DNA from: a virus
Lineage: Duplodnaviria; Caudoviricetes
Direction: 5' to 3' (one strand)
DNA: 64,000 nucleotides
Virus record (IMG/VR): IMGVR_UViG_3300005805_000071
Location: 1-64,000 of that record
Made by a program: the position numbers and the translations under genes. The notes under the pieces were generated by a model that searched no databases, had not been told where the DNA came from, and worked only from the letters and a program-made list of their open reading frames with translations. Numbering within the stretch: the stretch's first letter is position 1; each line of letters opens with the position of its first letter. Of the stretch, positions 33,664 through 63,898 are shown piece by piece.

Positions 33664-36600
33664 TTATACCTGATCAAATGTCACAGCATTAGTATCCCAA
33701 GAAGCCTCATTATCATCAAATTTAAACTCAAATCCTTCTGGAGGTGGTGGAACATCATATACTATATCAACAGTAGGATATGCATAACCAGATCCCCTGT
33801 TATTTACAACAACTCTAGAAACACCTACCTGTGCTCTTGCTTGAGCATCAAATCCAGTTAAAGAGTTGAAGGATATGATTGGTTCTGATGTATATCCTTC
33901 ACCACCAGAAGTTAACTGAATATTTTTAATTCTTCCATTAATAATTTCAGTTAAAGCTTCAGCACCATTTCCTAAAACACTTCCAAGATAATCAAAAGTT
34001 ATTAATGAATTCGAAGATTCGATAACCGCAACAGTTCTATCTTCAAGTTCCCCTTCTATACGTAATTTATCTCCAATTTCAACTGGAGGAATTACATCTA
34101 CAGAAATAACATCAGTATCAGAACCAATATAAGAGAATGCAACAAAAGTAGAACCAGCTCTGGGAACCTCAGCAAAAATAACTCTAGAACCAACAAGTTC
34201 AAATGCAACACCAGGTTCCTGAATAACTCCATTTAAGGATATAATAATATTATTTTCTGGTCTAATTGTTGATGATTGAACTCCATCGGTAAGTGTTAGT
34301 GAATAGAAAGAATCATTCAACTTCAAGTTGAAAGTACTTCTAAGTGAATCAAATTGGAATCCAATATCATCTAACTGGCGTAATTTTCCTAGATATACTG
34401 CACTAAACAATGATCCAATTGTAGGTGGTTCTGAGAATTGAACAGTATCACCAAATATAGTATAACTGGATCCAGGTGGTTGTAAAACACCATTTAAGAA
34501 TAGTAATAAATGACCGTCTTCTGGTGGGAAATAAGGATCGCCATTATTTTCAGTTAACGCAAAAGTATCTTGTATTCCATTAAATCCAACAAAAGATCTA
34601 GAAACTCTACCAGCAACTTCGACTACGTTTGTAACCGCTGCTCTATAGTTATATGAAGCAATAACCTGAGAATATGGGGAAAGATTGCCAACAACATTTC
34701 CTAGATATAGTCGATATCCTAATCCAATTTGAGATATCTTAGTTATTGTTGCATATGATTCTGTTGCAGTAATTAATACATTACTTATAGTACCACTTCC
34801 AGATGGGAAAACTTCACCGTCGTCAAAATAGGAAACTACGTTACCAGTAACAAAATCATCTTCTGTAAAATTAGCAACATAGATATATGCTTGAGAGTCA
34901 TTATTAATAAGTTCTACATTTAGAATTTTTGCGGAACTTGTTGTAGGAATAAGACCATTCACTTTAAATAATGTAGATCCAATTGGGAATTTTGAACCAA
35001 CCTGAGCATTTATATCAACCGTTAGCCTTACTGTTCTTGTTGTTCTAATAATATCATTTATACCAACAAGAGTTCCTTGAGGATCAACAATATCAATATA
35101 ATGAGAAGTATTATTTGAATATACTAATCTAGAAGGTAAAAACTCTCCTTGCAATGCTTCAGTCTCTAGAGTTAATTTGGAACCAGTATTCGATAAAATT
35201 GGACATACATTATAATCAAAATTATTTGAAGTGAGATCAGCACCAGAATATAATCCACTGATATATTCATCAGATCCAAACGATCCTATAACATTTACTA
35301 GTTGAACTCTATTTGTAATTGATGTAATTGTAGCTAAGTAACCATTATCATCTATTAGTGTGTGACCTACCGAGAACTGTCCAGAAGTCATAGACACATC
35401 GATATAGCTAACAAATTCTCCGTTTTCAGTTGATACTATAGTACCAGTGGTTCCAGGGAAACCCTGTCTAGTTACACTTGTATTATGTGAGAATACTTCA
35501 TCAGGATCATTATATTGTATTTCTAATCTACGAAGAATATTTTTAACATATCCCCTATTATTAATTATAGATTCAACTTCAGCAAATTCACCGCTAGTAG
35601 ATCCATAGATATAATCTCCAACAGATAAAGATCCTTTAATTGGTGTAAATGGTTCTCTTGAAGGATATGATTTTTGTGGGACAGATAAAGAATTTACACC
35701 AATAATTTGATTTATCTCTATATAAGAGGAATTATTCAATGTACCTAATAAAATAGACATATTATCAGTAATGAAATTCTGGATTTCTGTCAAATTCGAT
35801 CCAGTGATACTAATATTTGGATCTGTATATGCGTATTGTCCAGAAGCCGTTGCTGGAGAAGTTAGAGTTTCCGCAACTGCAAGTTTCATATAATCCAATA
35901 CTCTATTATATGCATATATACTTTGAACTAACTCTCCCTCCAAAGATACAATCGTTCCAGTTGTAGCATCGATATAGGATAACGTAGCATTCAGTATACC
36001 AGTATTGCCGTTAGTAAGTAAATCATACACAATAGCATCAATAATATATCCCATATCACGTAAACATTTTGCATTTCCACCAGGAATACTAAAACTTGGA
36101 TATTGGTTTAATGTTCTTTGAAGTGATTCGTACTTAATATATTCTTTATTAAATAGGAGCAGTTTAGCTGCATCTCTGTATAGTTTATTTGCATTGCTTT
36201 CCGACTGTCTAGTAACATGATTCATGTTACCATTGGTTACAGCAGTAGTTAATATTGAGAATAGTGTGGTAATTGATGATGCTACGTTAGCGCAAGTTGG
36301 ATTGCTCGGATCCACCTCAATCGTATTATCAATGACTTGAGTAAGAGATGAATAACCACCAATAGTAATGGATTGATTACGCATAGCTTCAATTGCCATG
36401 TCTCTTGCTTGATTGAAAGCATAATTCGATTGAATTTGTTCTCCAGAGAGATATGAATTAATTGTATATACTTGAGAATAATCGAAGGTACGAGCATTAC
36501 CACCATTTCTCAAATCATAGATTATAGCATCTAAAATATCTACAATATCATCAATACAATTTTGATTACCATTAGGAATTGTAAATGCTGGATATGCATT

Positions 36601-39600
36601 TAACATTCTACCAACAGCAACTTCAGCAATTAATTGTTTGTTAGATTCAATTAAGTTTGATGCATCATAATATCTTCCGAAGAACGAATTTCTTTCTGGT
36701 ATGAGAATACCAATACCAATATTGAATAATGTATCTATAGTTGCCTTTATTCTTTCGCAATTTCCACCATAAGTTCCATCATCAGCAGGGATAGTTAAGT
36801 CTTTATATTTTGGTGCAGTCGCGCCATAAGTGGTAGCATATTCCGAAGATGTTGTACCGCTAATAATCCAGTTATCAACTGCATACTGAGAAAGTTCATT
36901 AACCTTTTCAAATGCTATTACAGTTTGTAGAAGTTCATCTTTTACATATTCTATTTCTGCATTTCCGATATAGAATTCCATAGCACTAATAATATTATCA
37001 TTACCACCTGTTAACATGTCTGCAATTATAGAAGGGATAATATAATCAGTTATATCTCTTTCACATTTAGATGAGTTTCCATTTGGATATGTTAATGCAG
37101 TATAATTAACTCCATTCAACTGATATGTGAAGTAATTTTCAATATAACCTGTTGCTTCTTGTGCAATAAAATTACGATTAAACCATAATTGATTAGCAGC
37201 ATCTATATAAGCTTGATCTACTGGCGACAGTATAGTATTAATAAGAGTCCATAGGGAATCTATTGCGGACCTAACATCTGCACAAGCACCAGGATCTACA
37301 ATAACATCATAAGGAGGAACTGGTAATATATCTGAATATAATGGTGTATCACTTAAATTACCTATAACTGCATCCTGACATAACTCACTCATCTGAGTAT
37401 GAGCATAGAGACTTTGTAGAATCTGTAGTTTTATAAATCTCAAACCACCATTAGAATCTAGATAGAATCTTGCTGCAGTTGTGGTATTATAATTACCACC
37501 CACTTCAATATCTTCTGCTACAGCATCCAATAGTAATGATAAATCTAATTTACAACGATTAGTTCCTTCAATATTACCTCCCTCATCTCCAGGAATAATC
37601 AGATCTGGATATCTAGATTTCATTCTACCAGCAGCTTCTTCAACAATATGAGCAGCATTTAATCTAATTAAATTTGCAGCGTCTCTAAATCTATGTCTAT
37701 TATCGAGGTCTATTTGACCAGTGATAATTTTCTTATTGTTTGTCTGTATTTGATTAACAGTGAACGGAACAGTTAAATACTGTGATGTTACAGCGGATAC
37801 TGATCCAGAAGTTATTGTTTCACCCAAATTGAAATCACCAGATTGATTTCCTAAGAAAAGTGTTTTAAGTGCATAATTTATTCCAATAATCTCTGCTGTT
37901 TCCCCTGAATCTGAACCAGTTATAATATCTCCCTGGAAGAAATTACCTCCAGAAAGAGTGTGATATGTTAATCTCTTGGATACAATAATTTCACCAGAAG
38001 TAAAATCATCACTTTCATTAATATAATTAACATATAAACTCTGCAATAAATCATTTGCAATTACATTAGTTCCTGTATTATAATTAAAATCTAAAACTAT
38101 ATTAGTAATATCTTCAAAAGGAACGAAGTTTATTTCATATTTCTGCTCATCATCTTCGATATTTACTACTTCAACAACACTATTACCAATATCATCCAAA
38201 ATTGTATTTGGTCTATCTGGAATAATTTCTCTAGAGAATATCAATCCTGTAAAAGTGCTAGGATCACTAATAGAAATTGACGAAATTGGTTGTTCTGTTG
38301 AAGGATCTAAATATGGTGAAAGTGTTGTAATTCGTGCAAAAACTCCTGTTCTTGCACTTAAAATATAGTCACCTATATCTAAATCTAATACGCCTGATGG
38401 ATTTAGATAAGTTCCTGAAGTTTTACTAATTGTAATCTCATTTGTAACAATATTATTTGTCGTATTAAGATTAATTTCTTCAACAACAGCAGTATCTTTA
38501 GTTGTGTTAGTTATTACTTCTTCAAATTGATAAATGTTATCAACGTTGAAGGTCTCTTGAGATACTAGGATTGCATTCATTCCTGTTGCAGTTGAGATGA
38601 TAACCTCACCATTCTCAAATCCATCTCCAGTTATATTATATACTCTTAGTGATCCTGATGTTGATTGAACAATGTTGGCTGTAGTATTAGTAGTAATACC
38701 TCTAATTGATCCACCAAATTCAGGTAAAATTCCAGATAGGTTTGAAATATTAAGAATTTGAGTAGGAACAAATTGCAGTGTCAGTTTAGCATAGCTAATT
38801 TTTGTTGGAGCAGCTGGAGGTTCAGTGAAAATTATATTTCCCTGCTGTACTACGAACGAAGATCCTGGAGGTTGTATAACACCATTAATAGTGATTAAGA
38901 ACTGACTACTATCTGCAATAACAGGTTCTCCTAGAATTGTTAGTGGAAAAGCTGTTCGTTCTCCATCAAAGAGATTGGAAATATCATCTAGTCTTTGTAC
39001 GACAGATGTTAAAATTTCTTCAGATGTAGTTAATTTTTTGTTTCTAAATAAAACTTGAGTGTTATCAAAATCAGAGTATACTGGCTCAACAATAGCATAG
39101 TCTTGAATTGTTGAAACAACAGAACTTTCAATTAAATTAACGCTCTTTGTTAATTCAAATTCAGTTTTATTCGTTATTCCTTTCTTATTCTCTACAAGAT
39201 CAATTTCACCAAAAACTTTAAAACCAGCAGGATGCACGTTTTCAATTAAAGTTTCTCTCCATAGTTCAATTGGAACTGGTGATTTTATATTGTATGAGAA
39301 GTTTTGATATAGGTATGAATCTTGTATTTTTTGTACAATTTCTCCAAGTTTTCCTACATCCGAAGTAAATTTACCTGCAGTTGTGGTTGTTGAATCTACC
39401 TCAAGAACTCCCTTTGCATTACTAATACTATCAATTATTCCACTGGCTTTTGAAATTAAACCAGTTACAGGTTGACCAACTGTAAATACACCATCTATAT
39501 TTACAATTTTAAGAAGTCTTGGTCCAATTTGCCACCCATCATTAGTAGATACATATGCAGTTGCAGTTGCATTTTCATAAGTTTCACCTTGATAAATCAA

Positions 39601-42600
39601 TTCACCTGATAAAAATCTTCCAACTTCAACAATAGATTCTGCCGCTCCACCAAAAGAGTCGGTAAGAATAATCTGTCTTCCTGTACCAGCATTTACAAAA
39701 GAAATATAATTACCACTAATAGCATCTTGGGGTGTTAATGCGACTCTTAGTTGCTCATCTTCAAGACCATTTTCTAGTCCAGTAATAGCATAATAAGTTT
39801 GATTTGGATTTATATAACCAAAAGAAGTAAGAGGGAACTGAGTTCCTTCACCAACATCTTGATTTGTAAATGTTATTTCAGATCCACTCACAATTCCATG
39901 TGGGAATGAGAACTGGAATAAACCCAAATCAATGTTAACAACGTAAGTAAATGCAGACTTCAATGAAATAGTTGGAGCTGTAGAATAACCAGATCCAGTT
40001 TCTTTAACAATAATAGAGCTAAGTCTACCATTTCTAATTTCTGCTATAGCTGTAGCGCCAGATCCGCCGCCACCTTCAATTACTACTTCTGGTGCAGTAG
40101 TGTAACCAGTACCAGGATTAGTAATCTTAATACCACTAATTACGCTAGTACTTGTTAATTGTAAGTTAAGAGGGAATGTGATTTCTGGTCTTAATGTATA
40201 GTCATGGGTGTAATTAAATCCATAATTATTATTCTTTAAATTCTTAATTTTTCCAACTTGAGTACCCTTAGTGAATATAGATGCTCCAGAACCAAATGGG
40301 GGAATTTCAACTTCTAAAACAGCACCAGAACCACTTAAAAGTGGACCAAGAATACCATCAATAGCATCAACATCAATATAAGCTTGTGTGTACCCTTTTC
40401 CTGGATCTGTAATGGTTACTTCAACAATTTGACCAGCTGGATCTGTAGTTCCATCAACCAAGATTGAAACTTTTCCACCATTACCATCACCCAAGATAGG
40501 AATACCAAAGTATTGTCCAGCTGCATATTCGCTACCAGGTTCTATGATATTGACTCTTTCAATCTTTCTACTTGATTCAATTCCAGAAACAACAGGAAGT
40601 TTTTTATAAAATCCTCCTCCACTAATTAATTTTATAGACGAGATAGGTCCAGAGTCTTTCAGTGATTCTGTCGAATATGAAGATGATGCCGTAGTAGCGT
40701 TCTTTTCTGGCTCGTATGCCAAATTAAATTTAAATACATTTGGACCTTGAGTAATAGATCCACCATCTAAATCTGTAACTACAAATTTACCAATATAAGG
40801 ACTTAATTGAATGTCTAGATATGAATCGTTAGTAACTGGTCCATCAGCAGTTAGATTGGATGGATCAGCATAGTAAGTAATATTAGAAACATCATCCGTA
40901 ATCTTAAACGAAATATAAGGAGATGCTCCAGGTTGATCAAATCCAGGAGTACCACGTCTAACAATATTTTTGAAAGTATATTCAATCTTATACAAATTAT
41001 CTCTATAGAAAGATAGATAATGTCCCTGCATCGAAGGATCAGCTGTATCAAATGTATATTGCTGTCCGTAAATAAATCTAAATACTGGAGTTTTAACGTA
41101 AACTGATACAGTTTGAGCACTTGTAATATTTGATACTGGAATATCTCTCAATTCCAGGATAAATTCCTTTTTGGATATAACACTATGTACATCAAAAGTT
41201 CCATTTAGAGGTTCATAATTTACTGGAGATACTTGACAATATACTATATCACGAGTTTTTAAATAATGACTAGTTGCAGTTCTAACAAATATTAAATCGG
41301 TGTTATTTTTAGTATCGATCTGTAATACCTTAGTTAAATTTGTGATAATACTTATTTTAGTTACTGCGGTAAGATTTGTGATCGTAGCTTCTTTTCTATC
41401 ACTAGTAAAAGAAATATCATTACTGCTAATTGTTACAATTGATCCAACAACGTAAGATGATCCCTGAAGAACTTCATCAATTCTAATCAAATAGTCATTA
41501 TCAGAATAATCTTTAAAAATTCCAAAAATTTCATTAGGAATTTCAATATCAAAAGTTCCTGGTGTTGTATTATTTACTTCTGCAAAAACATATCCTTGAA
41601 TTTCATTTACAAAATTATCTGAACTTTGTAAATAACCAGTTGTCTCTGAGAATGACCCAGTTGCATCTCCAACTATTAGGTCATTATTTTCTAAATCTTT
41701 ATCAATAATTCTTGCAGTAGCAATAATAGCACCAAGATTATTTCTTTGATATAGAGTTGTTCCAACATTAAAATCAAATCCTTGATTCAAAGTTAATCTA
41801 AGAACATTATCAGTTTTTTCTGTCTGGAAATGTTTAAAGAAGAATTTATCAAAAGTTTTAGCACGAACCTTAACCTTACTTCCTCCAACTGTAGGAATCG
41901 TTGCCGTTCTGACTGACCATTTATCAAGTCTAACTGTTGGGATAGCATAATCTTGCGCTAATCCAGAAATAGCATTATTAAAATCTAAAATCTGCAAACC
42001 TTCTGGTGCTAGAGTATATGTTGATGATGAAATAATAACATCTTGCTCAGCAGCATTAGGAGTATACAATGATCTAGTGATTGCTATATCATTTGTAGTT
42101 AAGTTAATAGTACCTAATCTATCTGCATCAGCATTTTTATCCGTCTTAAATGAAAGACCAGATGGATTTCCGTAATCTGCTTTTAAATATCCTTCTGTTG
42201 GTACTCCAATAGTAGGATATGAACTATACCTAATATCATCAATCTTCATTGGCCAAGATTGATATGCTGTTGTTGATCCAAACTCAATCGTAGATGGACT
42301 TACATTTACGTTTTCTGAAATTGTTGCAGATAGAGTATCATTCCAATATAGTTTATATGTACTTACTCCTGAATTATATTCTTTTGTTACCTTTAAATGT
42401 ACCCAATCAGTAGTTAAATCGGTAATATGTGTAGATGTTGATGAAATCTGTGATACTGTAGCACCATCATTACTTAAACGAATTTTACCATATGTAGATG
42501 GTGAAGAAGTGTCAGCAAATACAACAACTCGTACTCCATTTACACCATCAGTAGCTCTTATTAATACTGGAGTTTTTGCAGTTGCAGTATTATCCCACTT

Positions 42601-45600
42601 AATCCATTCTTCAATTGTCCAATCATTAGAAGTATTTGTTAACGATCCTGCCGTTAACTTTGCATTTTGAGTTACTTCATAAGATCCTGTTCCATACTTA
42701 GTATCTACACTGATATTTACAGTTCCGCTGCTTGTTAAATCTAGTGATCTTTCTGTAATATCTTCATATGCGTTTTCTGCATTGAATAAGAATTGGGTTC
42801 TATTATCATATACAGTTCCCAATATAATGGGATCTCCAGAAACATCTGATATACAAGCAGATGTTTCAAAACCTTTTACTAAAGATGAAATCTTGGTTGA
42901 TTTTAAAACTTTTCCATCATACCTAAATTTAAACACACCAACTTGCTTAGTACCATCTAAATTGTTATTAATCGTGTATGAAACATTGACATCACCAAAA
43001 ATGTCGATGGAACACTTACCACAAGAAATGTCTACCGCTGGAGCAATTGTATTAAAACGATTTTTTACGATAGATCCGTCATTTGCAAGTCTAAAAAACT
43101 GTACAATATTTTTTACATTTGTTATCGTATTTTTTACTGCAGATGTGATATATAATTCATCATTTTCATCAATAACAGACGATATATTATTGAATGAATA
43201 ATTTGTTATACTAAACTCCTTAGTCCATTCAACTAATAATCTATTAGATGAGAGATATAATTTAGATACTAAAATATTATTTACATTTGAATTACCAACT
43301 ATAAAAATATTACCATTAGAGTCAACATTTATAGAATGTATTTTTTCTTCTAAAGATAATGAGGTTAGTTTTCTCTTGGTGATTAAATCTCCAGAGCTAT
43401 TCATGTATAGTAATATACCATCATTAATACTGGTAGTATTTGTATTAGTATACCCAGTAACAATAATATTTTCATTTAAACATACAACGTCAGTAGCGTA
43501 ATCTGCTCTAGTTATTCCACTAATACCTGCAAACTCTCTTTGCCATGAGAGAGAAACTGTAGAACCTGTGGTATTTTCAGTATATCTAGCAATTATAATA
43601 TCAGGGTTAAATACTGAATTTAAGTTGCCATTTGGTTTAGTTATTCCTACGACATAGATTTTATTATCTTTTTTCTTTACAGATACCAACTCACAGTAAT
43701 TATTTGGTGTTCCAGGTTGCGTAGAAGATAGTGATTTTGTCCAAACTACTGTTCCGTCTGAAGATAATTTTTGTAAGAATCCATGGTAGTTTCCATCAGG
43801 TAATTTTACTTTACCAACAACAATAGCGGTCTTGTCATCAGAAACAATACCATTAAGAATAGTAACCTCACCGTTAGTTGTATTGTGAGAAGTGTAATAG
43901 TAATCAGCTTTCTTCTTTGTTTGTGGGTGTGATACTCTAACAATTGGATCTGTTAAGTAACCATCACCAGAATTTATAATGTCAAAATTTTCAATGACAC
44001 CATTAGAAGAAACTACAGGAGTAATTTTTCCATACTCGCCAGTTGGAGATTCGATATTAACAGTAGGAATTTCATCAGATAAGTATCCAGTTCCAACTTG
44101 AGTTACTTCAACTCTCTCAATTCCTCTGATTGACTTAACGAGAATTGTTTTTGAAGTTGGTTCCATTTCTGGAACAGTATTTAATGTTACAATATCACCT
44201 ACAATTAGATTATGAGGTTCTGATGTTGCAACTCTACCTTTGAATACATCTTCTTGATTATCATATTCATATGTATATGATGTTATCTGCTTTCCTTTAA
44301 TTGAAGAAATTCTTGCAGAAGCACCGTAACCAGCTGTACCCTCATTATCAAATACTAATCTATCACCAACCTGATAATCATCTCCTTCATTTTCAATTAA
44401 GAATCCACTAATTTTAGCATCTTCAAATTTAGTAGTTGTGTTAACTTCAATATCTACTTTTGATGAAATATTAATTTTTGGGAAGTAATCAAATACTTCT
44501 AATCTATCCTCTTCAAAAATGACATCAGGATCATCTATTTCACTCTGATCAATTATACCATCTTTATTTTCATCTTCAATATCAAAGGTTAGAAAATCTC
44601 CATTTTCTAATGTTAAAGCATTTGTAGATTCATTTGGTTGTCTTTCAACATCAATGTCAACATTTTCAAAGGGAGTTCTATAACGAACAACACCAGTAGG
44701 TATATTTGATTGTGTAGCAAATTGATTTAAGTTCCATAATTCTGGACTTGAATTAAACTCTGGACCTAAAACATATGGGAACTTGGATTGACCAGCAGCA
44801 TCTATAGTAACAAAATAAGCATATGTTCCATTTGGATACTCTGGTGTTTTTGTAAATCTTCCATTATATTCATCTAGATAAACTGAAAGACTATTGAATG
44901 TATATTCATAATCTTCAATGAAAGTTCCAGCTGGATATTCTGATAGATCTGGACCTTCAATTCTAGATGGAACAGGATTGGTGTTTTGATCGAAAACTAG
45001 ATTTGTTTTTAAAACGTAACTACTTTGAATAGGTACTATACTGCTGGATAAATTTGTAGGATCACTTAGTCCATAAGGTCCGTATATGGGATTTCCATCA
45101 AAAGCCCATCCTAAGATTGGTGAATGGAGTACGGATTCTCTCTCAATCAATTCACCATTAACAATATCGATATTATCTCCAAGAACATATCTTAATTGTT
45201 TTGGATTTGAGATATGTGCGTATTCTCCACCAAACTGGTTATTAAAACCTTCAAAGATAGATCCATTTGCATAGTCAAATGTAGTAGTTTGATTTAAATT
45301 AAAAGTCCATTCGAAAATTTCAGACTCAAACTCGGCAAGTTCTCCAACAGATTCTAATCTAATTTGAGTTGTTCCTTGAACATATCCAATACCACGATTT
45401 ACAATTTCTATACTAATAACTCTTCCTGAATCTACTCCTTCAGTTGAAATGATAGCTCTAGCTACAGCACCATATCCATTTCCAGTTATAATTACCTTTG
45501 GCGCAGTAGTATAACCAGTACCAGCAGCAATAATAGCAATAGAAATAATTCTACCATTACTTACATATGCCTGTGCAGCTGCCCCTTGACCACTACTAAT

Positions 45601-48600
45601 TGACACTTTTGGTGGAGATGTGTAGCTTGTTCCTGGATTTGTAACTACAACTTCTTTAATTGGACCTCTAACAACTGCTCTTGCTTCAGCACCAACACCA
45701 CCTCCACCAGTAATAGTTACTATAGGTTCGGATGTATATCCAGATCCAGGAGTATTTAATAGAATATTTGTTAATCTTCCATTAGTGACCACAGCAGTTC
45801 CAGCTGCACCAATACCATCAGATCCATAAATTGAAACCAAAGGTGCATCGGTATAACCACTACCTCCATTTAATACTTCAAATCCAATAACGGATCCATC
45901 CACCACTACTTCTGCAGATGCATTTTGTCCACCACCTCCAGAAATAGTTAAAATAGGAGGAACAGATGCATCATAATCTTTTCCAGAATTGGTGATATTT
46001 ACAGATGTTACTGGACCATATGGTAGTGTTTTGGTTGATTTGTAACTCCAAATAGAAATACCATTAACAAAACTTCCAATAGGACCTGGTTTTATAACAG
46101 TTTTTAGTGATATTGTATTTGGTATTCTTGGGAATTTGTATAACTTTCTTTGGTTTCCAGGTAACAATGCTGTACCTGGGAAAGGACCAATTTTATAGTT
46201 TGGAATTCCAGATGCAGCAACATAGACATCAGTATCATTCAAGAATGTATTTTGAATATTTGAGGGGTATTTGCTAATAGTATTATTGATAGTATCATTA
46301 TCACTCTTTCCTGTATTCAGGTCAATTGATATTAGAATATTTCCTTGAGGATCTGCAACTGCAGGTTGAGGTATTTCATATTTAAATACTGTATCACTTT
46401 CTCTTGCTGTTACCAAGAAAGATCCATTATATACAATAGGATTTGCTCCATATACAGTGAATTTATCTCCAACCAATAGACCATGAGGAGTATCAGTTGT
46501 CACTGATACTGTTCTATTGTTAAGACCACCAAAGGTCATATCTTCTACTTTAAGTAGTTTTTTGACATTATATAACCAACTAGTAACAAGTTCGGATGTG
46601 TCATCAGTACCTAATTTGGAAATTGAAAGTTTATCTCCCTCTAAGTAGTAGTTACCATCATCAATGAGAATCGTTTTATTTGCATCAATAATGCCTAGTA
46701 TTGACAAGATAACTTCATTAGAAGTCCCCTTATTCAAATAAACATAAACGTTAGAAACGACTTCTGTTCCAGCATCCCACTTTGTTGGTTCAGTACCATA
46801 CAGTCCTCTAGTACACTCAATAAATTGAGTTAAAGTTTTTTCCTTATATCTAATAATTTCTGATCCAATAATCACCTCACCATTTCTGTCTGGCCAACCA
46901 ATTGTAGAGTCAACATTAACTATCAAATCTTCAGGATCTACTCTTTCAATTAATTTTGTGCTGTATGGAATAACAAATTTACCAACAACACTTTCTTCAG
47001 ATAAAATTAATTCATATACATCATAAAACGCTGTCTGAATAGCTGTATAATTTTCTACTAATGCACTTGCATATGAAACGTTTGTATCAATAGGATCATC
47101 CAACTGCTCCATTAAGGAGTCTTTAATATTATTAGGATCACCAGATATTAATTTTGCTCTCAATACAGTGTCTACAGACCAAGTTGACGCTGATGGTTTA
47201 ATAATTTGATCTTTAGGATATGTTACCGAAACCGATTCACCATATAGTAATTTAAACAAATATTTTACTGAATTTACTGTTCCCTTTGATGCATAAAAAT
47301 CCTTAATAGTACTCAATACATTAGAAATGTTTAGTGTATTTGTATCTAATGATGGTAATCCTGGTAAATATTGCTCACAAATTCTATCAACAATTTTCTT
47401 AAGAAAAACGCTATCGATACTAATTACTGAAGCATTTGCTTTATGTACAGTTGGTATAGATTCAGACTCTTTTTTAAATACAACATCATTTATATCATAT
47501 CTTAATAAACCGCTAACTCCTCTGCTGCAATTAACAAATTCAGATTTGATATATCTTTCCCCATGATTGATCAGTTCAAAACCAGTTATCTGATCTTCAC
47601 CAATTTCAGCAGATACTTTAGCTCCTACTGTTGGTGAAATATAAACCTTTGGTGGAAACTGTCTTGAATATCCACTACCAAAATCGGTGATATTGATATC
47701 AATAATTTCACCATTAAATATTGCTGCGACTGCTTTTGCTCCAGTTCCACCAATGAAATTTCCTAGATTATCTTTTCTTTCATCAACAATGTAAATACTT
47801 GGTACATCATTATATCCAAATCCACTATCTAATAGTTCAATATTAATTACTCTTCCAAAATCATCTACTTCAACATCTAATATTTGTGCCCCTGTTGGCT
47901 GTACAACTTTTACTCTAGGCGGATTTAGATATGAATATCCTCTTCCAGGAGCTAAAATATTTACCGCAACTAAAACTCCATCATCGTTAAGAACTCCCTC
48001 TGCTACAGCTTGAATGCCATTTGAATCTTCTGGTAAATCGATATAAATGTGTGGAGCAACGGTATAACCAAATCCACCAGAAATTACTTCAATACTTACT
48101 AGAGAGTCTCCATCCACAACTGGATTACCAACTTCCGCTCCATATGGATTTACGATTTGAACCCTAGGAACAAAATCATAACCAGATCCGCTACTAGTCA
48201 GATTAATAGATTGTATTGAACCATCAGTATTTACTGTAACTTCTGCGGTTGCTTGTTTACCTTCTGGATTAGTTGGCGAATTAATTACAACAGAAGGAGG
48301 ATTTGTTTGTGAATATCCATATCCACCATCCAATAATGTTAGTTTGGTTATCCCTCCAACTAAAGCTGTAGCCGTTGCATTGATACCTGAACCACCAACT
48401 ATAGTTACCTGTGGAGTATTTTCAATCTTATATCCACTACCACCAACTCTAGGAACGATTTTTTCAATTCTTCCTTGATTGTCAACAACACTAAAAGACT
48501 CTGCTCCAGATCCGACCGAAACTAAATTTGCATTGATGTATCCTACATATATACTTTCTCTTGGAGCAACTTTAAAGATTATATTATTTTGATAAATGCT

Positions 48601-49407
48601 ATAATCTATTGATGGCATGAGATAATTACCATCGGCAATAACTACGCACAATGAAGTTGCTGATGGATAAAATGGAACATTATTAACTTTTAAATTGAAA
48701 ATATATTTTAGTGGAGTATTTTCATCTGACGGCACTAAAGTATCCATAACCTGGATATTGGATTGCGAAAATCCTTTCAGGTATTCTATACTGATACTTG
48801 TAGCAGTATCAGATAAATTGATAATATCAAAAGTTCTAGGAGCTTGAGTGAAAACAATCTCATCATTTTCGACAGTATAATCTACTTCTGGAATTAAAAA
48901 CTCATCGTAAATTTTAACTATTAGATGCTTACTAGATGCTGGAAATATTGGTATATTATCTGATGTTAGTTCAAACCTTTTTCTAGTGCCGTCAAAAAGG
49001 TTAAAAGGATTTGCTAATTCAATTTTCTTAGTATTAAATTCTCCTATAGAAATTCCCGAAGTTAAAATTATACTAGGAGATTTTTTTAGATATTCATAAT
49101 AAATGATCTCATCATCTATCAATATAGTTCCGTCTTGCTCAACAAAACCATAAGTATTTTCAACTTCAATATTTTTAGTTTGATGATCAATATCAAAAAT
49201 TAGTGTTGTGTGTCCATCTAACTTTGTCAGATCATACTTTCCAATATTCAAATAATCTGATAGATTATTTACAATATCAATTGGTCCACCAGTCCTTTCT
49301 TGAGATTTGTAGTATTGTGATACAAAATCTTCAAATAAAGGACTATTTTCTTTTATGAATGCAGGAAGTTGATTTAATACTGAAAGCGAAACGGATGCGT
49401 GTTGCAT
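33664..49407 (-). CDS. Giant baseplate wedge initiator (gp7-like) multidomain protein, 5247 aa
   Basis: LPAFIKENSPLFEDFVSQYY and KDFYASKGT..SVKYLFKLLYG motifs; follows gp6. Contains G-rich beta repeats, a split YHYH-like domain, propeller-like and LamG-like segments, and four phycobiliprotein-like domains. Confidence 0.85.
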   Translation of the reverse strand: MQHASVSLSVLNQLPAFIKENSPLFEDFVSQYYKSQERTGGPIDIVNNLSDYLNIGKYDLTKLDGHTTLIFDIDHQTKNIEVENTYGFVEQDGTILIDDEIIYYEYLKKSPSIILTSGISIGEFNTKKIELANPFNLFDGTRKRFELTSDNIPIFPASSKHLIVKIYDEFLIPEVDYTVENDEIVFTQAPRTFDIINLSDTATSISIEYLKGFSQSNIQVMDTLVPSDENTPLKYIFNLKVNNVPFYPSATSLCVVIADGNYLMPSIDYSIYQNNIIFKVAPRESIYVGYINANLVSVGSGAESFSVVDNQGRIEKIVPRVGGSGYKIENTPQVTIVGGSGINATATALVGGITKLTLLDGGYGYSQTNPPSVVINSPTNPEGKQATAEVTVNTDGSIQSINLTSSGSGYDFVPRVQIVNPYGAEVGNPVVDGDSLVSIEVISGGFGYTVAPHIYIDLPEDSNGIQAVAEGVLNDDGVLVAVNILAPGRGYSYLNPPRVKVVQPTGAQILDVEVDDFGRVINIELLDSGFGYNDVPSIYIVDERKDNLGNFIGGTGAKAVAAIFNGEIIDINITDFGSGYSRQFPPKVYISPTVGAKVSAEIGEDQITGFELINHGERYIKSEFVNCSRGVSGLLRYDINDVVFKKESESIPTVHKANASVISIDSVFLKKIVDRICEQYLPGLPSLDTNTLNISNVLSTIKDFYASKGTVNSVKYLFKLLYGESVSVTYPKDQIIKPSASTWSVDTVLRAKLISGDPNNIKDSLMEQLDDPIDTNVSYASALVENYTAIQTAFYDVYELILSEESVVGKFVIPYSTKLIERVDPEDLIVNVDSTIGWPDRNGEVIIGSEIIRYKEKTLTQFIECTRGLYGTEPTKWDAGTEVVSNVYVYLNKGTSNEVILSILGIIDANKTILIDDGNYYLEGDKLSISKLGTDDTSELVTSWLYNVKKLLKVEDMTFGGLNNRTVSVTTDTPHGLLVGDKFTVYGANPIVYNGSFLVTARESDTVFKYEIPQPAVADPQGNILISIDLNTGKSDNDTINNTISKYPSNIQNTFLNDTDVYVAASGIPNYKIGPFPGTALLPGNQRKLYKFPRIPNTISLKTVIKPGPIGSFVNGISIWSYKSTKTLPYGPVTSVNITNSGKDYDASVPPILTISGGGGQNASAEVVVDGSVIGFEVLNGGSGYTDAPLVSIYGSDGIGAAGTAVVTNGRLTNILLNTPGSGYTSEPIVTITGGGGVGAEARAVVRGPIKEVVVTNPGTSYTSPPKVSISSGQGAAAQAYVSNGRIISIAIIAAGTGYTTAPKVIITGNGYGAVARAIISTEGVDSGRVISIEIVNRGIGYVQGTTQIRLESVGELAEFESEIFEWTFNLNQTTTFDYANGSIFEGFNNQFGGEYAHISNPKQLRYVLGDNIDIVNGELIERESVLHSPILGWAFDGNPIYGPYGLSDPTNLSSSIVPIQSSYVLKTNLVFDQNTNPVPSRIEGPDLSEYPAGTFIEDYEYTFNSLSVYLDEYNGRFTKTPEYPNGTYAYFVTIDAAGQSKFPYVLGPEFNSSPELWNLNQFATQSNIPTGVVRYRTPFENVDIDVERQPNESTNALTLENGDFLTFDIEDENKDGIIDQSEIDDPDVIFEEDRLEVFDYFPKINISSKVDIEVNTTTKFEDAKISGFLIENEGDDYQVGDRLVFDNEGTAGYGASARISSIKGKQITSYTYEYDNQEDVFKGRVATSEPHNLIVGDIVTLNTVPEMEPTSKTILVKSIRGIERVEVTQVGTGYLSDEIPTVNIESPTGEYGKITPVVSSNGVIENFDIINSGDGYLTDPIVRVSHPQTKKKADYYYTSHNTTNGEVTILNGIVSDDKTAIVVGKVKLPDGNYHGFLQKLSSDGTVVWTKSLSSTQPGTPNNYCELVSVKKKDNKIYVVGITKPNGNLNSVFNPDIIIARYTENTTGSTVSLSWQREFAGISGITRADYATDVVCLNENIIVTGYTNTNTTSINDGILLYMNSSGDLITKRKLTSLSLEEKIHSINVDSNGNIFIVGNSNVNNILVSKLYLSSNRLLVEWTKEFSITNYSFNNISSVIDENDELYITSAVKNTITNVKNIVQFFRLANDGSIVKNRFNTIAPAVDISCGKCSIDIFGDVNVSYTINNNLDGTKQVGVFKFRYDGKVLKSTKISSLVKGFETSACISDVSGDPIILGTVYDNRTQFLFNAENAYEDITERSLDLTSSGTVNISVDTKYGTGSYEVTQNAKLTAGSLTNTSNDWTIEEWIKWDNTATAKTPVLIRATDGVNGVRVVVFADTSSPSTYGKIRLSNDGATVSQISSTSTHITDLTTDWVHLKVTKEYNSGVSTYKLYWNDTLSATISENVNVSPSTIEFGSTTAYQSWPMKIDDIRYSSYPTIGVPTEGYLKADYGNPSGLSFKTDKNADADRLGTINLTTNDIAITRSLYTPNAAEQDVIISSSTYTLAPEGLQILDFNNAISGLAQDYAIPTVRLDKWSVRTATIPTVGGSKVKVRAKTFDKFFFKHFQTEKTDNVLRLTLNQGFDFNVGTTLYQRNNLGAIIATARIIDKDLENNDLIVGDATGSFSETTGYLQSSDNFVNEIQGYVFAEVNNTTPGTFDIEIPNEIFGIFKDYSDNDYLIRIDEVLQGSSYVVGSIVTISSNDISFTSDRKEATITNLTAVTKISIITNLTKVLQIDTKNNTDLIFVRTATSHYLKTRDIVYCQVSPVNYEPLNGTFDVHSVISKKEFILELRDIPVSNITSAQTVSVYVKTPVFRFIYGQQYTFDTADPSMQGHYLSFYRDNLYKIEYTFKNIVRRGTPGFDQPGASPYISFKITDDVSNITYYADPSNLTADGPVTNDSYLDIQLSPYIGKFVVTDLDGGSITQGPNVFKFNLAYEPEKNATTASSSYSTESLKDSGPISSIKLISGGGFYKKLPVVSGIESSRKIERVNIIEPGSEYAAGQYFGIPILGDGNGGKVSILVDGTTDPAGQIVEVTITDPGKGYTQAYIDVDAIDGILGPLLSGSGAVLEVEIPPFGSGASIFTKGTQVGKIKNLKNNNYGFNYTHDYTLRPEITFPLNLQLTSTSVISGIKITNPGTGYTTAPEVVIEGGGGSGATAIAEIRNGRLSSIIVKETGSGYSTAPTISLKSAFTYVVNIDLGLFQFSFPHGIVSGSEITFTNQDVGEGTQFPLTSFGYINPNQTYYAITGLENGLEDEQLRVALTPQDAISGNYISFVNAGTGRQIILTDSFGGAAESIVEVGRFLSGELIYQGETYENATATAYVSTNDGWQIGPRLLKIVNIDGVFTVGQPVTGLISKASGIIDSISNAKGVLEVDSTTTTAGKFTSDVGKLGEIVQKIQDSYLYQNFSYNIKSPVPIELWRETLIENVHPAGFKVFGEIDLVENKKGITNKTEFELTKSVNLIESSVVSTIQDYAIVEPVYSDFDNTQVLFRNKKLTTSEEILTSVVQRLDDISNLFDGERTAFPLTILGEPVIADSSQFLITINGVIQPPGSSFVVQQGNIIFTEPPAAPTKISYAKLTLQFVPTQILNISNLSGILPEFGGSIRGITTNTTANIVQSTSGSLRVYNITGDGFENGEVIISTATGMNAILVSQETFNVDNIYQFEEVITNTTKDTAVVEEINLNTTNNIVTNEITISKTSGTYLNPSGVLDLDIGDYILSARTGVFARITTLSPYLDPSTEQPISSISISDPSTFTGLIFSREIIPDRPNTILDDIGNSVVEVVNIEDDEQKYEINFVPFEDITNIVLDFNYNTGTNVIANDLLQSLYVNYINESDDFTSGEIIVSKRLTYHTLSGGNFFQGDIITGSDSGETAEIIGINYALKTLFLGNQSGDFNLGETITSGSVSAVTSQYLTVPFTVNQIQTNNKKIITGQIDLDNRHRFRDAANLIRLNAAHIVEEAAGRMKSRYPDLIIPGDEGGNIEGTNRCKLDLSLLLDAVAEDIEVGGNYNTTTAARFYLDSNGGLRFIKLQILQSLYAHTQMSELCQDAVIGNLSDTPLYSDILPVPPYDVIVDPGACADVRSAIDSLWTLINTILSPVDQAYIDAANQLWFNRNFIAQEATGYIENYFTYQLNGVNYTALTYPNGNSSKCERDITDYIIPSIIADMLTGGNDNIISAMEFYIGNAEIEYVKDELLQTVIAFEKVNELSQYAVDNWIISGTTSSEYATTYGATAPKYKDLTIPADDGTYGGNCERIKATIDTLFNIGIGILIPERNSFFGRYYDASNLIESNKQLIAEVAVGRMLNAYPAFTIPNGNQNCIDDIVDILDAIIYDLRNGGNARTFDYSQVYTINSYLSGEQIQSNYAFNQARDMAIEAMRNQSITIGGYSSLTQVIDNTIEVDPSNPTCANVASSITTLFSILTTAVTNGNMNHVTRQSESNANKLYRDAAKLLLFNKEYIKYESLQRTLNQYPSFSIPGGNAKCLRDMGYIIDAIVYDLLTNGNTGILNATLSYIDATTGTIVSLEGELVQSIYAYNRVLDYMKLAVAETLTSPATASGQYAYTDPNISITGSNLTEIQNFITDNMSILLGTLNNSSYIEINQIIGVNSLSVPQKSYPSREPFTPIKGSLSVGDYIYGSTSGEFAEVESIINNRGYVKNILRRLEIQYNDPDEVFSHNTSVTRQGFPGTTGTIVSTENGEFVSYIDVSMTSGQFSVGHTLIDDNGYLATITSITNRVQLVNVIGSFGSDEYISGLYSGADLTSNNFDYNVCPILSNTGSKLTLETEALQGEFLPSRLVYSNNTSHYIDIVDPQGTLVGINDIIRTTRTVRLTVDINAQVGSKFPIGSTLFKVNGLIPTTSSAKILNVELINNDSQAYIYVANFTEDDFVTGNVVSYFDDGEVFPSGSGTISNVLITATESYATITKISQIGLGYRLYLGNVVGNLSPYSQVIASYNYRAAVTNVVEVAGRVSRSFVGFNGIQDTFALTENNGDPYFPPEDGHLLLFLNGVLQPPGSSYTIFGDTVQFSEPPTIGSLFSAVYLGKLRQLDDIGFQFDSLRSTFNLKLNDSFYSLTLTDGVQSSTIRPENNIIISLNGVIQEPGVAFELVGSRVIFAEVPRAGSTFVAFSYIGSDTDVISVDVIPPVEIGDKLRIEGELEDRTVAVIESSNSLITFDYLGSVLGNGAEALTEIINGRIKNIQLTSGGEGYTSEPIISFNSLTGFDAQARAQVGVSRVVVNNRGSGYAYPTVDIVYDVPPPPEGFEFKFDDNEASWDTNAVTFDQV

Positions 49408-49443: not shown

Positions 49444-51402
49444 TTAACTGAAGCAAGATGCGAAATCTGCGGTTACAGCAACAGGGGAAGTAAATGTCAA
49501 GGTTTGTGGATTTGCTGCTAAGGAATTTGGATTTCCTGTTGATGCTCCTGGACCAGTAGAAGGAATATCAGTTCCTACATTAATTTCTGGAGTTGGAATA
49601 CTTATAATTGCTCCAGCGGGAGGAGTAATATTATTTGGATTTAGTGGATTAACTGAAATCACAATATTCGTTGGACATGTTGCATCTGGAGGACACTGTG
49701 TTGTTATTGGTCCAACTACTACCTGTCCATTATCGCAATTATATGTTCCAGCATTAGTATTTGTAATGACTGGTTGATTATTGTCAATATAGTATGACAC
49801 TAAATTACCATTACCATCATCCTGTAAATACTGTGGTTGTACTATACCTGGAGTATAAAATGCAGATGATTGAACAGTGTTTCCAGCAGCAGAATCACAA
49901 CTACAATTTAATTGCATTCCAAAATTTAATGTCCATGTTGAAGGATCAGTCAAATCCTCATAAGGTATTATTTGATATGGTGTAATTCCAAATTGAACAT
50001 CATTAATATTTGGATCTGAATTTAAAATAATTTTTTCTAACTGAGAAATGGATAGCGATCTTCCAAAATTTCCTAAATCTTGCTGATCTCCATAGTCTTG
50101 CAATGCTGCCAACACTCTTCTTCTTATATCATCTGCAGTATTTTGACTTAATGAATCATCTGATAAAACACTTCTAAATGTATTTGCAGCAATAAAGATT
50201 CTAAGATTAACATAAAAATCATCTGGATCAACAATAACCGTTTCGACAGATGCCATAGCATATGGTCTAAGCTTAGAAATAATCTCATTACGAGTTAGGT
50301 TATTTAATTTTGTACCAGTTGTAGTTTTAATTGCTACAATAACCTTTCCGTATACTGGGGGATTTAATATTTCTCCTCCAAATGCATTTACATATTTCGC
50401 ATTGGGATATATATTTCTAATAATTGCCTCATAATCCCTAGCTGTTACTGCTCTGTTTTGTGCCGCATAGTATTTTGGTGCATTAAACTTGATAGATTTA
50501 ATTGATTCTGCGGGTGACCCAAGTTGAGATTTATCATTTAGGACCATTCTAACGGATAATGGTGCAATTCCATTTGAATCTACCATCGTTCCAATAAAAG
50601 ACATGGAGTTTACATTATTTCCTGCATCTCCACTTGATCTTACATATTCAAAATATATTACTTCATTGTCTTCTAATTTTTTTCCTATCACTCCATCACC
50701 AAAAGTTAATTCATATCTTCTATCTTCAGTTTCATTTAAGAAATAAATTTTATCTGTAGATTCCACAGATGTCACATTCATTACTCTATTAAATCTGTCA
50801 TATTGAGTGGATTGAATATTAGGTTTCACATAAACAGTTAACGTATCTGTATCTACATTATCATTTGGAATAATGTAATTTTGTTGAATATTTGTATCTA
50901 CAACATATTGATATGATAATAAATTTCCCTCATAAATTTTAAAATTGTCAAATATAGCTTCTCCAGTTGCTCTATTTACTGATACAGTCTTATCACTCAA
51001 TACTACAAATGTATAGGTAATTCCATTTACAACACCAGAAGCAACATCACCTTTCAGTAAAGTGACTGTTGTAGGAAAGGAACCATCAACGCCTAAAACT
51101 GTTTGAACAACACAAGTAACACATGCTTTTGCTGTAGATACTGATCTTGGGGTATAATTAATAAATCTTGCTAAAGATACTACATTATCCCTTATCGATG
51201 CTGTATCCAAAAATAGTTCGTTTAGTGCCATGTTAGCATTGAACGCACTGTAATAAGTGTTGTATGCTAACAAATCAATAAGATATGAAAGAGTAGAACC
51301 AGTAAAATCATAGTCAGTAAACTCTGGACGAGTTCTTAAATATGACTTGATAGATTCTCTAATGTCATCAAAATCTATATTAACTAAATTAGTAGGTTTC
51401 AT
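49444..51402 (-). CDS. gp6: Baseplate wedge subunit gp6
   Basis: DFDDIRESIKSYL, DYDFTGSTLSYLIDLLAYNT, YELTFGDG and QNRAVTARDY motifs. Confidence 0.93.
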   Translation of the reverse strand: MKPTNLVNIDFDDIRESIKSYLRTRPEFTDYDFTGSTLSYLIDLLAYNTYYSAFNANMALNELFLDTASIRDNVVSLARFINYTPRSVSTAKACVTCVVQTVLGVDGSFPTTVTLLKGDVASGVVNGITYTFVVLSDKTVSVNRATGEAIFDNFKIYEGNLLSYQYVVDTNIQQNYIIPNDNVDTDTLTVYVKPNIQSTQYDRFNRVMNVTSVESTDKIYFLNETEDRRYELTFGDGVIGKKLEDNEVIYFEYVRSSGDAGNNVNSMSFIGTMVDSNGIAPLSVRMVLNDKSQLGSPAESIKSIKFNAPKYYAAQNRAVTARDYEAIIRNIYPNAKYVNAFGGEILNPPVYGKVIVAIKTTTGTKLNNLTRNEIISKLRPYAMASVETVIVDPDDFYVNLRIFIAANTFRSVLSDDSLSQNTADDIRRRVLAALQDYGDQQDLGNFGRSLSISQLEKIILNSDPNINDVQFGITPYQIIPYEDLTDPSTWTLNFGMQLNCSCDSAAGNTVQSSAFYTPGIVQPQYLQDDGNGNLVSYYIDNNQPVITNTNAGTYNCDNGQVVVGPITTQCPPDATCPTNIVISVNPLNPNNITPPAGAIISIPTPEINVGTDIPSTGPGASTGNPNSLAANPQTLTFTSPVAVTADFASCFS

Positions 51403-62613: not shown

Positions 62614-63846
62614 TCATCGAGTCATGGTAGAAATAGCAGGGACACCTTGCACAAAGATAGTATCAACAACAGACTGCAATCGCTTGGCAATAGCACTACC
62701 ATAGTTGGTGAACACGGGCACGATCACACTACCAAACTGTTTGCGATACAGATGACATGCACCAGCAGGAATCTTGCCAGATGCAATATCAGCAGCATCA
62801 TCTTTGTCCATACGGATAACACGTCCTACGGTCTGTGCCATCTCGATGATAGGCATTTGACGCAACATAATGCAGTGAGAGAGACCAGGAACGTTGATAC
62901 CTTCGGACAGAATACTATAGTGAAGCAGCACAAACTTCTTAGATTTGTCTTTGCCCCACTCGGTCAGAGTGTCAAAGAACTTCTCACGATTGACCTTTGT
63001 ACGATTAACATAGGCACCGTGCTTAGATGTAATGTGAAGGATGCCATATCCACGATCTTCCAACTCTTTCAGGATGTCAGAGTTAGTGAGCATATTCCAC
63101 ATAACTTTCGTGCTGGGAGCAGCTACGAGCACCTTAGGATTGTCATGCTCGATGTTATCGAGAATGTCCACAATCATGTTACGATCTGCCTCTGCTGCAG
63201 TACGTTTGTCACGGGTAATATCTACTTTGTAGGTATCAACTTGCGGAGGAATGATACAACCAGTCTCAATCAGTTCTTTAGCACGAACGTTGTGAATCAC
63301 GTTTCCGTAGATGCTAACGTTGTTCATGCCGTTAGCATTAGGATTGGTGTGATGTTTGGGAGTTGCAGTAAAGAAATACTTGCTATCTGCGGACAGAGAT
63401 GTAGCAGCAGTGGCAATAAAATGCTTCTTCTGAGTAGAATTGTGTGCCTCATCGAAGTATGCTACATCAGCACACACACCAGCATCAACTACACGACCGA
63501 GAGAATGATAGGTAGTGAAGATGATACGATTGGTGTCCGCATGTTGAGTAACCCAATCCGCAATCTTGTCGGATTTGGTAGAAGAATAGTGATGAGTTTC
63601 ACCACTATGAACGTGCATCACATTGGCAGAGGTGATAAACTCCAGAAACTCTGCGGAGAGTTGCTCAGCAAGCAGAATACGAGGTGCAACAACAACAGCA
63701 ATTTGACCAGGATTCTGCACAAAACGTTGCAGCAGATTCATGATCATGCAGAGAGTCTTGCCACCACCAGTAGGAATAACGATCTGACCGATCTTGTGCT
63801 GGTTCATTGCATCAAGCACACGGGATTGGTGGAGTCGCAGTTTCAT
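62614..63846 (-). CDS. Superfamily 2 (DEAH-box, type III restriction Res-like) helicase/ATPase
   Basis: Walker A PTGGGKT, DEAH, TAT, LSEGINVP and QTVGRVIR motifs. Start ATG 63846, since 63873 lies in the -10 element. Confidence 0.9.
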   Translation of the reverse strand: MKLRLHQSRVLDAMNQHKIGQIVIPTGGGKTLCMIMNLLQRFVQNPGQIAVVVAPRILLAEQLSAEFLEFITSANVMHVHSGETHHYSSTKSDKIADWVTQHADTNRIIFTTYHSLGRVVDAGVCADVAYFDEAHNSTQKKHFIATAATSLSADSKYFFTATPKHHTNPNANGMNNVSIYGNVIHNVRAKELIETGCIIPPQVDTYKVDITRDKRTAAEADRNMIVDILDNIEHDNPKVLVAAPSTKVMWNMLTNSDILKELEDRGYGILHITSKHGAYVNRTKVNREKFFDTLTEWGKDKSKKFVLLHYSILSEGINVPGLSHCIMLRQMPIIEMAQTVGRVIRMDKDDAADIASGKIPAGACHLYRKQFGSVIVPVFTNYGSAIAKRLQSVVDTIFVQGVPAISTMTR

Positions 63847-63869
63847 AGTAATTTGATTGGTATGTGAAT

Positions 63870-63898
63870 ACAATAGAGCACAAAGGTCTAGAAGTCAA
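63870..63898 (-). promoter_or_regulatory. Sigma70-type early promoter for the helicase
   Basis: TTGACT-17 bp-TATTGT. Confidence 0.85.

Follow-up and report, generated by a model that had tools for sequence, protein, structure and literature searches.

A stretch of 64,000 nucleotides, referred to here as the window, was analysed, comprising positions 1 to 64,000 of the IMG/VR virus record IMGVR_UViG_3300005805_000071, a 78.5-kb viral contig with an estimated completeness of 44%. The window represents the structural module of a T4-like cyanomyovirus, and the structural proteins that it encodes all lie on the minus strand. Among them is a giant virion protein of 5247 amino acids (aa), which carries in its C-terminal quarter four tandem domains, R1 to R4, that are homologous to phycobiliproteins (PBPs). 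The domains were delimited by hidden Markov model (HMM) envelopes, and the features of the locus are as follows.

33664..49407, minus strand: giant virion protein, 5247 aa, at the gp7 position directly downstream of a gp6 homologue
37222..37713, minus strand: PBP-like domain R1, aa 3899-4062 (HMM envelope); PF00502 at 22.0 bits alone; Cys3952-x-x-Asp, second Cys4042, extra Cys4010
36697..37227, minus strand: PBP-like domain R2, aa 4061-4237 (HMM envelope); Cys4115-Glu-Arg-Asp, second Cys4217
36232..36693, minus strand: PBP-like domain R3, aa 4239-4392 (HMM envelope); Cys4284-Ile-Asp-Asp, second Cys4372
35731..36204, minus strand: PBP-like domain R4, aa 4402-4559 (HMM envelope); Cys4448-Leu-Arg-Asp, no second Cys
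37552-37554 (R1), 37063-37065 (R2), 36556-36558 (R3) and 36064-36066 (R4), minus strand: Cys82-equivalent codons, by HMMER alignment onto PBP Cys82/84
37282-37284 (R1), 36757-36759 (R2) and 36292-36294 (R3), none in R4, minus strand: beta-Cys153-like codons at the start of the last helix, by weak collinear alignment

The four domains are 155-178 aa long and together occupy aa 3899-4559 of a single open reading frame (ORF), with a pairwise identity of 23-32% and 18 invariant columns. This 661-residue stretch holds 8 of the 19 cysteines of the giant protein. An original prediction for this DNA had claimed four tandem repeats inside the giant protein, each with a cysteine at the bilin-attachment position (codons at 37552, 37063, 36556 and 36064), an Asp three residues later and a P-x-G-N loop. 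The four repeats were found, with the coordinates extended by 15-21 nucleotides (5-7 residues) at each N-terminal side; the Cys82-like codon is TGT and the codon three residues on is GAT (Asp) in all four. The loop is exact in R2-R4 but is interrupted in R1 by an insertion (PGDEGGN). R4, with Cys4448-Leu-Arg-Asp, comes closest of the four to the PBP motif AKC(A/L)RD. An equivalent of PBP Asp39 is present in all four domains, and the residue at +2 from the cysteine is Arg in R2 and R4, Leu in R1 and Asp in R3. The insertion in the R1 loop is 8 residues long; in R2, a small beta-hairpin is predicted at domain residues 35-44, behind the first helix, and the G-H loop spans 40 residues. A profile scan found no PBP-like domain in the other minus-strand ORFs of the window.

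Sequence comparison was carried out from both sides, from the family profile to the phage protein and from the phage domains to known structures. PF00502 (Phycobilisome protein) matches the whole four-domain stretch with 60.7 bits (E 2.1e-16; gathering cut-off 22.2). On single repeats, R4 passes the cut-off by itself with 27.5 bits, R1 reaches 22.0 and R3 15.4 bits, and a scan of R2 alone gave no match. A single-sequence search of the PDB with the stretch (phmmer) returned only phycobiliproteins, with R4 GNAKCLRDMGYIIDAIVYDL aligned onto phycocyanin alpha. For the reciprocal search, 80 related IMG/VR loci were gathered, 171 distinct domain copies were extracted from them, and a profile of 98 sequences, free of cellular PBPs, was prepared. 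Searched against the PDB, this phage-only profile returned 160 sequences at E up to 1, all of them PBPs or a PBP-like bacterial fluorescent protein, and the best match was phycocyanin beta (E 6.3e-8, subunit residues 34-100). Judged from these sequence comparisons, the resemblance of the repeats to phycobiliproteins is not due to chance.

Predicted structures were then compared, a check that the original prediction had proposed with AlphaFold and Foldseek, and phycoerythrin beta came out on top for both domains modelled. The AlphaFold2 model of R3 is all-helical, with a predicted local distance difference test (pLDDT) score of 92.2, and its top Foldseek matches were all PBP beta chains, with template modelling (TM) scores of 0.65-0.81. 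When aligned with VIA-align to the phycoerythrin beta of Phormidium (5aqd_M), the R3 model gave a Z of 18.2 and a root-mean-square deviation (rmsd) of 2.1 Å over 147 of its 155 residues, covering chain residues 27-184. The R2 model (pLDDT 90.9) aligned to the same chain with a Z of 15.6 and an rmsd of 2.6 Å over 150 residues (chain residues 25-184). In a structural search of representatives, allophycocyanin and the ApcE bilin domain matched the models with a Z of 12-15, and other globins with 12 or less. As modelled, the domains have the PBP variant of the globin fold, with helices A-H. The structural alignments begin at phycoerythrin beta residue 25-27 and the HMM alignments at residue 34, so that the domains lack the X helix and the greater part of the Y helix; the predicted lack of the N-terminal X/Y helices was thereby borne out. 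Outside the PBPs, the nearest structural neighbours were sensor globins for bilin or heme, among them the bilin-binding globin domain of photocobilin photoreceptors (8j2y and 8j2w, Z 10-11) and globin-coupled sensors.

Sequence profile, reciprocal profile and predicted structure uphold the claimed homology, and the four repeats are genuine phycobiliprotein homologues, namely beta-type globin domains. The recruitment of the domains from a host, which had also been claimed, is plausible, but its date is not fixed; the phage domains have an identity of 17-22% to cellular PBPs, and any capture from a host must therefore be ancient.

The candidate bilin site was surveyed in 461 distinct near-full-length copies from 121 giant homologues, which contain 2 to 36 copies per protein; the resulting counts are not phylogenetically independent. 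A Cys82-like cysteine is present in 95% of the copies and an Asp at +3 in 96%, which upholds the conserved Cys and Asp of the original prediction. The two residues go together: Asp at +3 occurs in 440/440 copies with the Cys82-like cysteine, and 18 of the 21 copies without this cysteine are also without the Asp. A second cysteine, which opens the last helix behind a long loop, the place of Cys153/155/165 in beta subunits, is found in 57% of the copies. The Asp39 equivalent is present in 261/264 copies with the second cysteine, compared with 108/197 copies without it, and in cellular PBPs beta-Asp39 ligates the beta-153 bilin. The orthologous third domains of two phages follow the same coupling, with both the second cysteine and the Asp39 equivalent in Syn9 and neither in S-SM1. 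A Cys/Asp pattern of this kind would be expected from a ligand site of two residues.

The distribution of the domain was examined next by sequence and structure searches. By tblastn, the four-domain stretch matched 361 of 50,697 phage records, each of which bears the name Synechococcus, Prochlorococcus, Cyanophage or marine virus. Structure matches in BFVD at E up to 1e-3 came only from fragments of tail or structural proteins of cyanophages or from fragments of proteins of uncultured Caudovirales. A profile search of Pelagibacter phage HTVC008M (same family, Kyanoviridae, according to NCBI), cyanophage S-TIM5 and T4 found no domain. The restriction to cyanophages is upheld, and the tblastn matches fall only in records of cyanophage kind. 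More than one protein type hosts the domain, namely the giant protein at the gp7 position in the window and fibre-like proteins in P-HM1, S-PM2 and S-RSM4, and up to 36 PBP-like units occur in one homologue. A search with R4 for stand-alone forms among proteins of 86-277 aa found none, a weak negative, as such a search sees word-sharing candidates only. Among cellular genomes, a single-protein scan gave one locus, a copy of the four-domain stretch with 63% identity on the 42-kb contig CAYVOK010000024.1, assigned to an 'uncultured Acidimicrobiaceae' metagenome-assembled genome; this is probably a cyanophage contig binned by mistake.

The precomputed Pfam column of public protein tables lists PF00502 for most homologues, so that the databases already 'see' the domain. 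No discussion of these domains was found in the full-text literature searched, including cyanophage genome papers and reviews. The absence of a prior description, as originally stated, therefore holds for the literature searched, but the PF00502 match itself already stands in the public tables. On each point by which computation could have spoken against the phycobiliprotein reading (profile and structural matches to the fold, conservation of the cysteine, and occurrence in phages of other hosts), the results came out in its favour.

A further line of evidence comes from the genes that accompany the domain. The T-type lyase gene cpeT, scored as PF06206 (CpeT), and the domain, scored by profile, were recorded in complete genomes, with a first set of 18 and a second set of 12 further isolates chosen regardless of the domain. 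The four IMG/VR genomes of the first set include S-SM1 itself and a near copy of P-RSM4. The outcome was as follows.

Both domain and cpeT, first set: P-HM1, S-PM2, S-CREM1, P-SSM4, Syn9, P-RSM4, P-TIM40, S-WAM1, S-CAM1 and four IMG/VR genomes
Neither, first set: P-SSM2, S-CRM01, HTVC008M, S-TIM5 and T4
Both domain and cpeT, second set: S-SM1, S-SSM5, Syn1, Syn19, S-RSM4, P-SSM7 and S-ShM2
Neither, second set: S-SM2, S-SSM7, S-CREM2, S-B68 and S-N03

In a forward test, the phage collection was searched with two CpeT proteins, and two large genomes, S-SCSM1 and ACG-2014f, were picked solely for their CpeT match. PBP-like units were present in both, with E 9e-17 in S-SCSM1 and E 3e-12 in ACG-2014f. 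In gp6 trees these two phages are sisters of S-SM2 and P-SSM2, which have neither gene nor domain, with Shimodaira-Hasegawa-like approximate likelihood ratio test (SH-aLRT) values of 98 and 100. Altogether, 27 distinct T4-like cyanomyoviruses were scored, in which 20 have both, 7 have neither and none is discordant. S-CREM1, the nearest complete relative of the window, has CpeT. T-type lyases are established to attach bilins at the beta-Cys153-type cysteine (PMC10452541), and the structure of the P-HM1 CpeT has been solved (Gasper et al., 2017, as cited in PMC10452541). A link between CpeT and a virion protein was not proposed anywhere in the literature searched.

Homology, fold, conserved site residues, cyanophage restriction and co-occurrence with cpeT are established by these results. 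The reading that joins the conservation of the site, the putative beta-type second site and the phyletic link to cpeT most simply is that the domains receive their chromophore in the infected cell, with CpeT acting on the second site and bilin present on the adsorption apparatus of the virion. In the best explanation of the data, which is held at about the midpoint of the scale, most copies in the baseplate or fibre protein are made as holo-domains and the pigment of the virion is most likely a light sensor. Beyond the established points, we infer bilin attachment, a role of CpeT as the lyase, and light sensing. The co-variation at the sites and the co-occurrence with cpeT lend indirect support to the original proposal that the domains may carry bilins and act in light-dependent adsorption. 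A bilin, either phycoerythrobilin or phycocyanobilin, would be supplied by host or phage enzymes and would be thioether-linked inside the infected cell; its site would be the Cys82-like cysteine, with the beta-Cys153-like one as an additional site in R1-R3. The phage's own CpeT would serve this second site. The finished virion would then be pigmented on its baseplate or fibres, that is, on the adsorption apparatus, where the bilin would most likely sense light and so gate adsorption or the triggering of the baseplate. Bilin binding by the domains is an even call, and light-gated adsorption through the domains is a tentative and rather doubtful extension of it.

A sensory role fits the published adsorption data. 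P-HM1 and P-HM2 do not adsorb in the dark and P-SSM2 does, and the light-dependent adsorption of S-PM2 is independent of photosynthesis, with a mechanism described as unknown (PMC6628666). In the genomes, P-HM1 has the domain, cpeT, heme oxygenase and the reductase, and P-HM2 has the domain and cpeT by tblastn; S-PM2 is domain-positive and P-SSM2 is domain-negative. The match between adsorption and domain is an anecdote and not a test, because it involves three phages only. The broader proposal is that T4-like cyanophage virions are biliproteins, that CpeT loads a bilin onto their baseplate or fibre domains during assembly, and that this pigment is the photoreceptor behind the light-dependent adsorption of phages such as S-PM2 and P-HM1/P-HM2, which would make the virus particle a light sensor in its own right; it is put forward as an unlikely conjecture.

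A number of observations weigh against pigment-bearing, CpeT-loaded domains, and they concern the site, the genetic link and the use of the fold. At the site, the alignment of the second cysteine to the GDC of phycocyanin beta consists of low-scoring collinear HMMER segments together with the helix position, with no significant local score. The Arg at +2 (Arg84/86), the residue that binds a propionate of the bilin in PBPs, is kept in 251/461 copies and, in the window, in R2 and R4 only. A third cysteine, at profile column 108 and present in R1, occurs in 105 copies, 86 of which have the second cysteine too, and the third and second cysteines could form a disulfide in a subset of copies, R1 included.

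On the genetic side, the CpeT ORFs of P-SSM7 and S-ShM2 are divergent, though syntenic, and pass the cut-off only when two segments are summed (23-29 bits); the CpeT of ACG-2014f is also weak, with 11 bits by Pfam and 8e-5 by tblastn. When corrected for ancestry, the co-occurrence shrinks to 3 independent contrasts if well-supported branches are counted, and to 5 if the best tree is taken; every contrast is concordant, and a sign test on the cpeT-domain contrasts gives p 0.25, the number being too small. No cpeT was found in the 78.5-kb record of the window (44% complete) or in five related IMG/VR fragments, an absence that is uninformative for this lineage because the records are fragments. 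P-SSM2 (NC_006883) has heme oxygenase and bilin reductase and neither cpeT nor PBP-like units; these two genes do not track the domain, and the phage bilin synthesis genes therefore need at least one other use. An S-type lyase is encoded by marine cluster C phages (PMC10665884), in which a profile search found no domain. A complex prediction for an S-RIM12 CpeT with a domain of the same phage gave no verdict (score 0.00) and is evidence neither way.

The use of the fold bears on the strongest alternative, namely that an ancient PBP-derived helical domain serves as a rigid block or spacer without pigment, its Cys and Asp residues being kept for folding or packing. P-SSM4 (NC_006884, 70400-77200) keeps three to four PBP-like units in which both cysteines are lost, with Gln, Leu or Val at the Cys82-like place; the coupled Asp is lost in two of three units, and cpeT and a bilin reductase are kept. 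P-SSM4 is in effect a natural 'apo' control: since it keeps units without cysteines, the fold has a role without the pigment site, and since it retains cpeT, this gene does not strictly need the cysteines. Several phages moreover use the fold in pieces, as tandem arrays of profile positions 3-44 (the first helix) or 45-160 (the Cys helix onward). Such partial-fold arrays are located as follows.

135-146 kb: an IMG/VR genome
170-173.6 kb: S-RSM4
55.5-58.1 kb: S-PM2

Because the fold is used in pieces in these phages, in a manner that resembles structural tinkering, it also has a structural life of its own. The range of 2 to 36 copies per protein is in keeping with a building block, and no coloured cyanophage virion is reported in the literature searched. 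Packing hardly explains, however, why 95% of the copies should keep a cysteine that falls exactly on the bilin site and is strictly coupled to an Asp at +3, or why the second cysteine should be coupled to the Asp39 equivalent, and the perfect co-occurrence with a bilin lyase gene is left unexplained. A purely structural module is therefore possible, and it is regarded as clearly less probable than bilin-carrying, light-sensing domains.

A second alternative accepts the holo-domains and assigns the pigment another task, such as photoprotection of the virion or a surface for recognition or mimicry, in place of a light switch for adsorption. It draws on the same evidence for bilin binding, and a need of light for adsorption is not known for every domain-positive phage, the data covering a handful of phages. 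Mimicry of the intracellular phycobilisome parts would have no obvious target, because baseplate and fibre proteins stay outside the cell, and a non-sensory pigment is considered improbable. Least likely is another chemistry of the cysteines, with disulfides stapling an extracellular domain, or a metal or other cofactor, and a link to CpeT through shared ancestry only: virion proteins do face an oxidising medium, the third cysteine enriched alongside the second could pair with it across the long G-H loop, and few independent contrasts stand behind the phyletic link, but the first cysteine has no possible partner in 57/159 first-set copies and in R4, the established geometry of the PBP subunit puts Cys82 and Cys153 at its opposite ends, and a disulfide does not explain the coupled Asp residues.

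The remainder of the window gives the setting of the giant gene. The products encoded on the minus strand include portal, sheath, terminase, head-closure proteins, a PAAR protein, a gp6-type wedge subunit and several baseplate or fibre proteins, and the G+C content of the window is 32-42%. The giant gene is placed in the baseplate module because a gp6-type gene lies immediately upstream of it.

49444..51402, minus strand: gp6-type baseplate wedge subunit (phrog_219, 618 bits), immediately upstream of the giant gene

Other segments of the giant protein show a YHYH domain and weak LamG-like, beta-propeller and baseplate-wedge matches. In its C-terminal half, PF00502 is the sole family matched, with 52.3 bits in that context. 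PF23786 (Pfam Baseplate_wedge) scores 16.8 bits on the giant protein, below its cut-off of 27 bits, and is listed for most of its homologues in the precomputed tables. Annotations of the homologues read 'baseplate wedge subunit', 'baseplate wedge initiator' or 'virion structural protein'. Among isolates, Synechococcus phage S-CREM1 comes nearest, with 62.6% identity over the four-domain stretch and a homologue annotated as a baseplate wedge subunit; a megablast search of the phage collection for near-identical DNA gave no match.

Two more very large virion ORFs are located in the window, one at 19830-27125 on the minus strand (2431 aa, phrog_358, function unknown) and one at 14256-19325 on the minus strand (1689 aa), which is a structural protein with fibre-like pieces. 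No PBP-like unit was found in either of them. Two ORFs of more than 400 aa overlap on opposite strands, a DNA helicase (phrog_16) at 62614-63873 on the minus strand and an ORF at 62647-63867 on the plus strand that is probably a shadow ORF.

Two questions are touched by these domains. The first is why marine cyanomyoviruses carry cpeT, and often bilin synthesis genes, even where the host has little or no matching phycobiliprotein target; the role of the phage bilin genes has been called a mystery (Sullivan et al., 2010; PMC3037559). The second is why the adsorption of some cyanomyoviruses depends on light and not on photosynthesis. A pigment domain in the adsorption apparatus, found only in phages with the lyase, would be one concrete answer to both. 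If pigment is bound, no photoreceptive virion protein would precede this one, and the phycobiliprotein fold would have gained a new use beyond the harvesting of light. If it is not, the domains are a clear example of a virus turning an antenna fold into a structural component. The feature is a known family in an unexpected place, with a homology as good as computation allows and a functional reading that is unusually testable.

Comparison with known systems places the domains in context. The gene for T4 gp7 likewise follows that for gp6 directly in the baseplate module, while the window protein is five times longer, and the PBP-like units of P-HM1, S-PM2 and S-RSM4 sit in other fibre-like proteins and not in gp7. 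The cyanophage T-type lyase CpeT occurs in the same genomes as the domain without exception in the 27 phages, and R1-R3 keep a cysteine resembling that of beta-153; CpeT is the product of an auxiliary gene and has so far been assumed to act on host phycoerythrin. The closest relatives of the domains are the PBP beta subunits (CpeB, CpcB and cryptophyte beta chains; PF00502), which share with them the globin-like fold from helix A onward and the Cys-x-x-Asp of the beta-82 site; equivalents of Asp39 and Asn47 are likewise kept in the phage domains. In R1-R3 a long G-H loop leads to a cysteine that opens the last helix, a putative counterpart of the one at beta-153/165. The cellular proteins are free subunits of 160-180 aa, whereas the phage domains form four tandem copies in a virion protein of 5247 aa. 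The X/Y helices that the cellular subunits use for pairing are missing from the phage domains, so that no alpha-beta pairing of the known kind is expected, and the Arg at +2 is often missing as well. In its architecture the giant protein resembles the core-membrane linker ApcE, in which a PBP-fold domain is likewise embedded in a much larger multidomain protein, and which aligns to the phage models with a Z of 13.7-15.1. ApcE differs in that its bilin Cys is at a different position and in that it is located in the phycobilisome core and not in a virus particle. It attaches its bilin without a separate lyase, and it provides a precedent for an embedded, self-sufficient domain.

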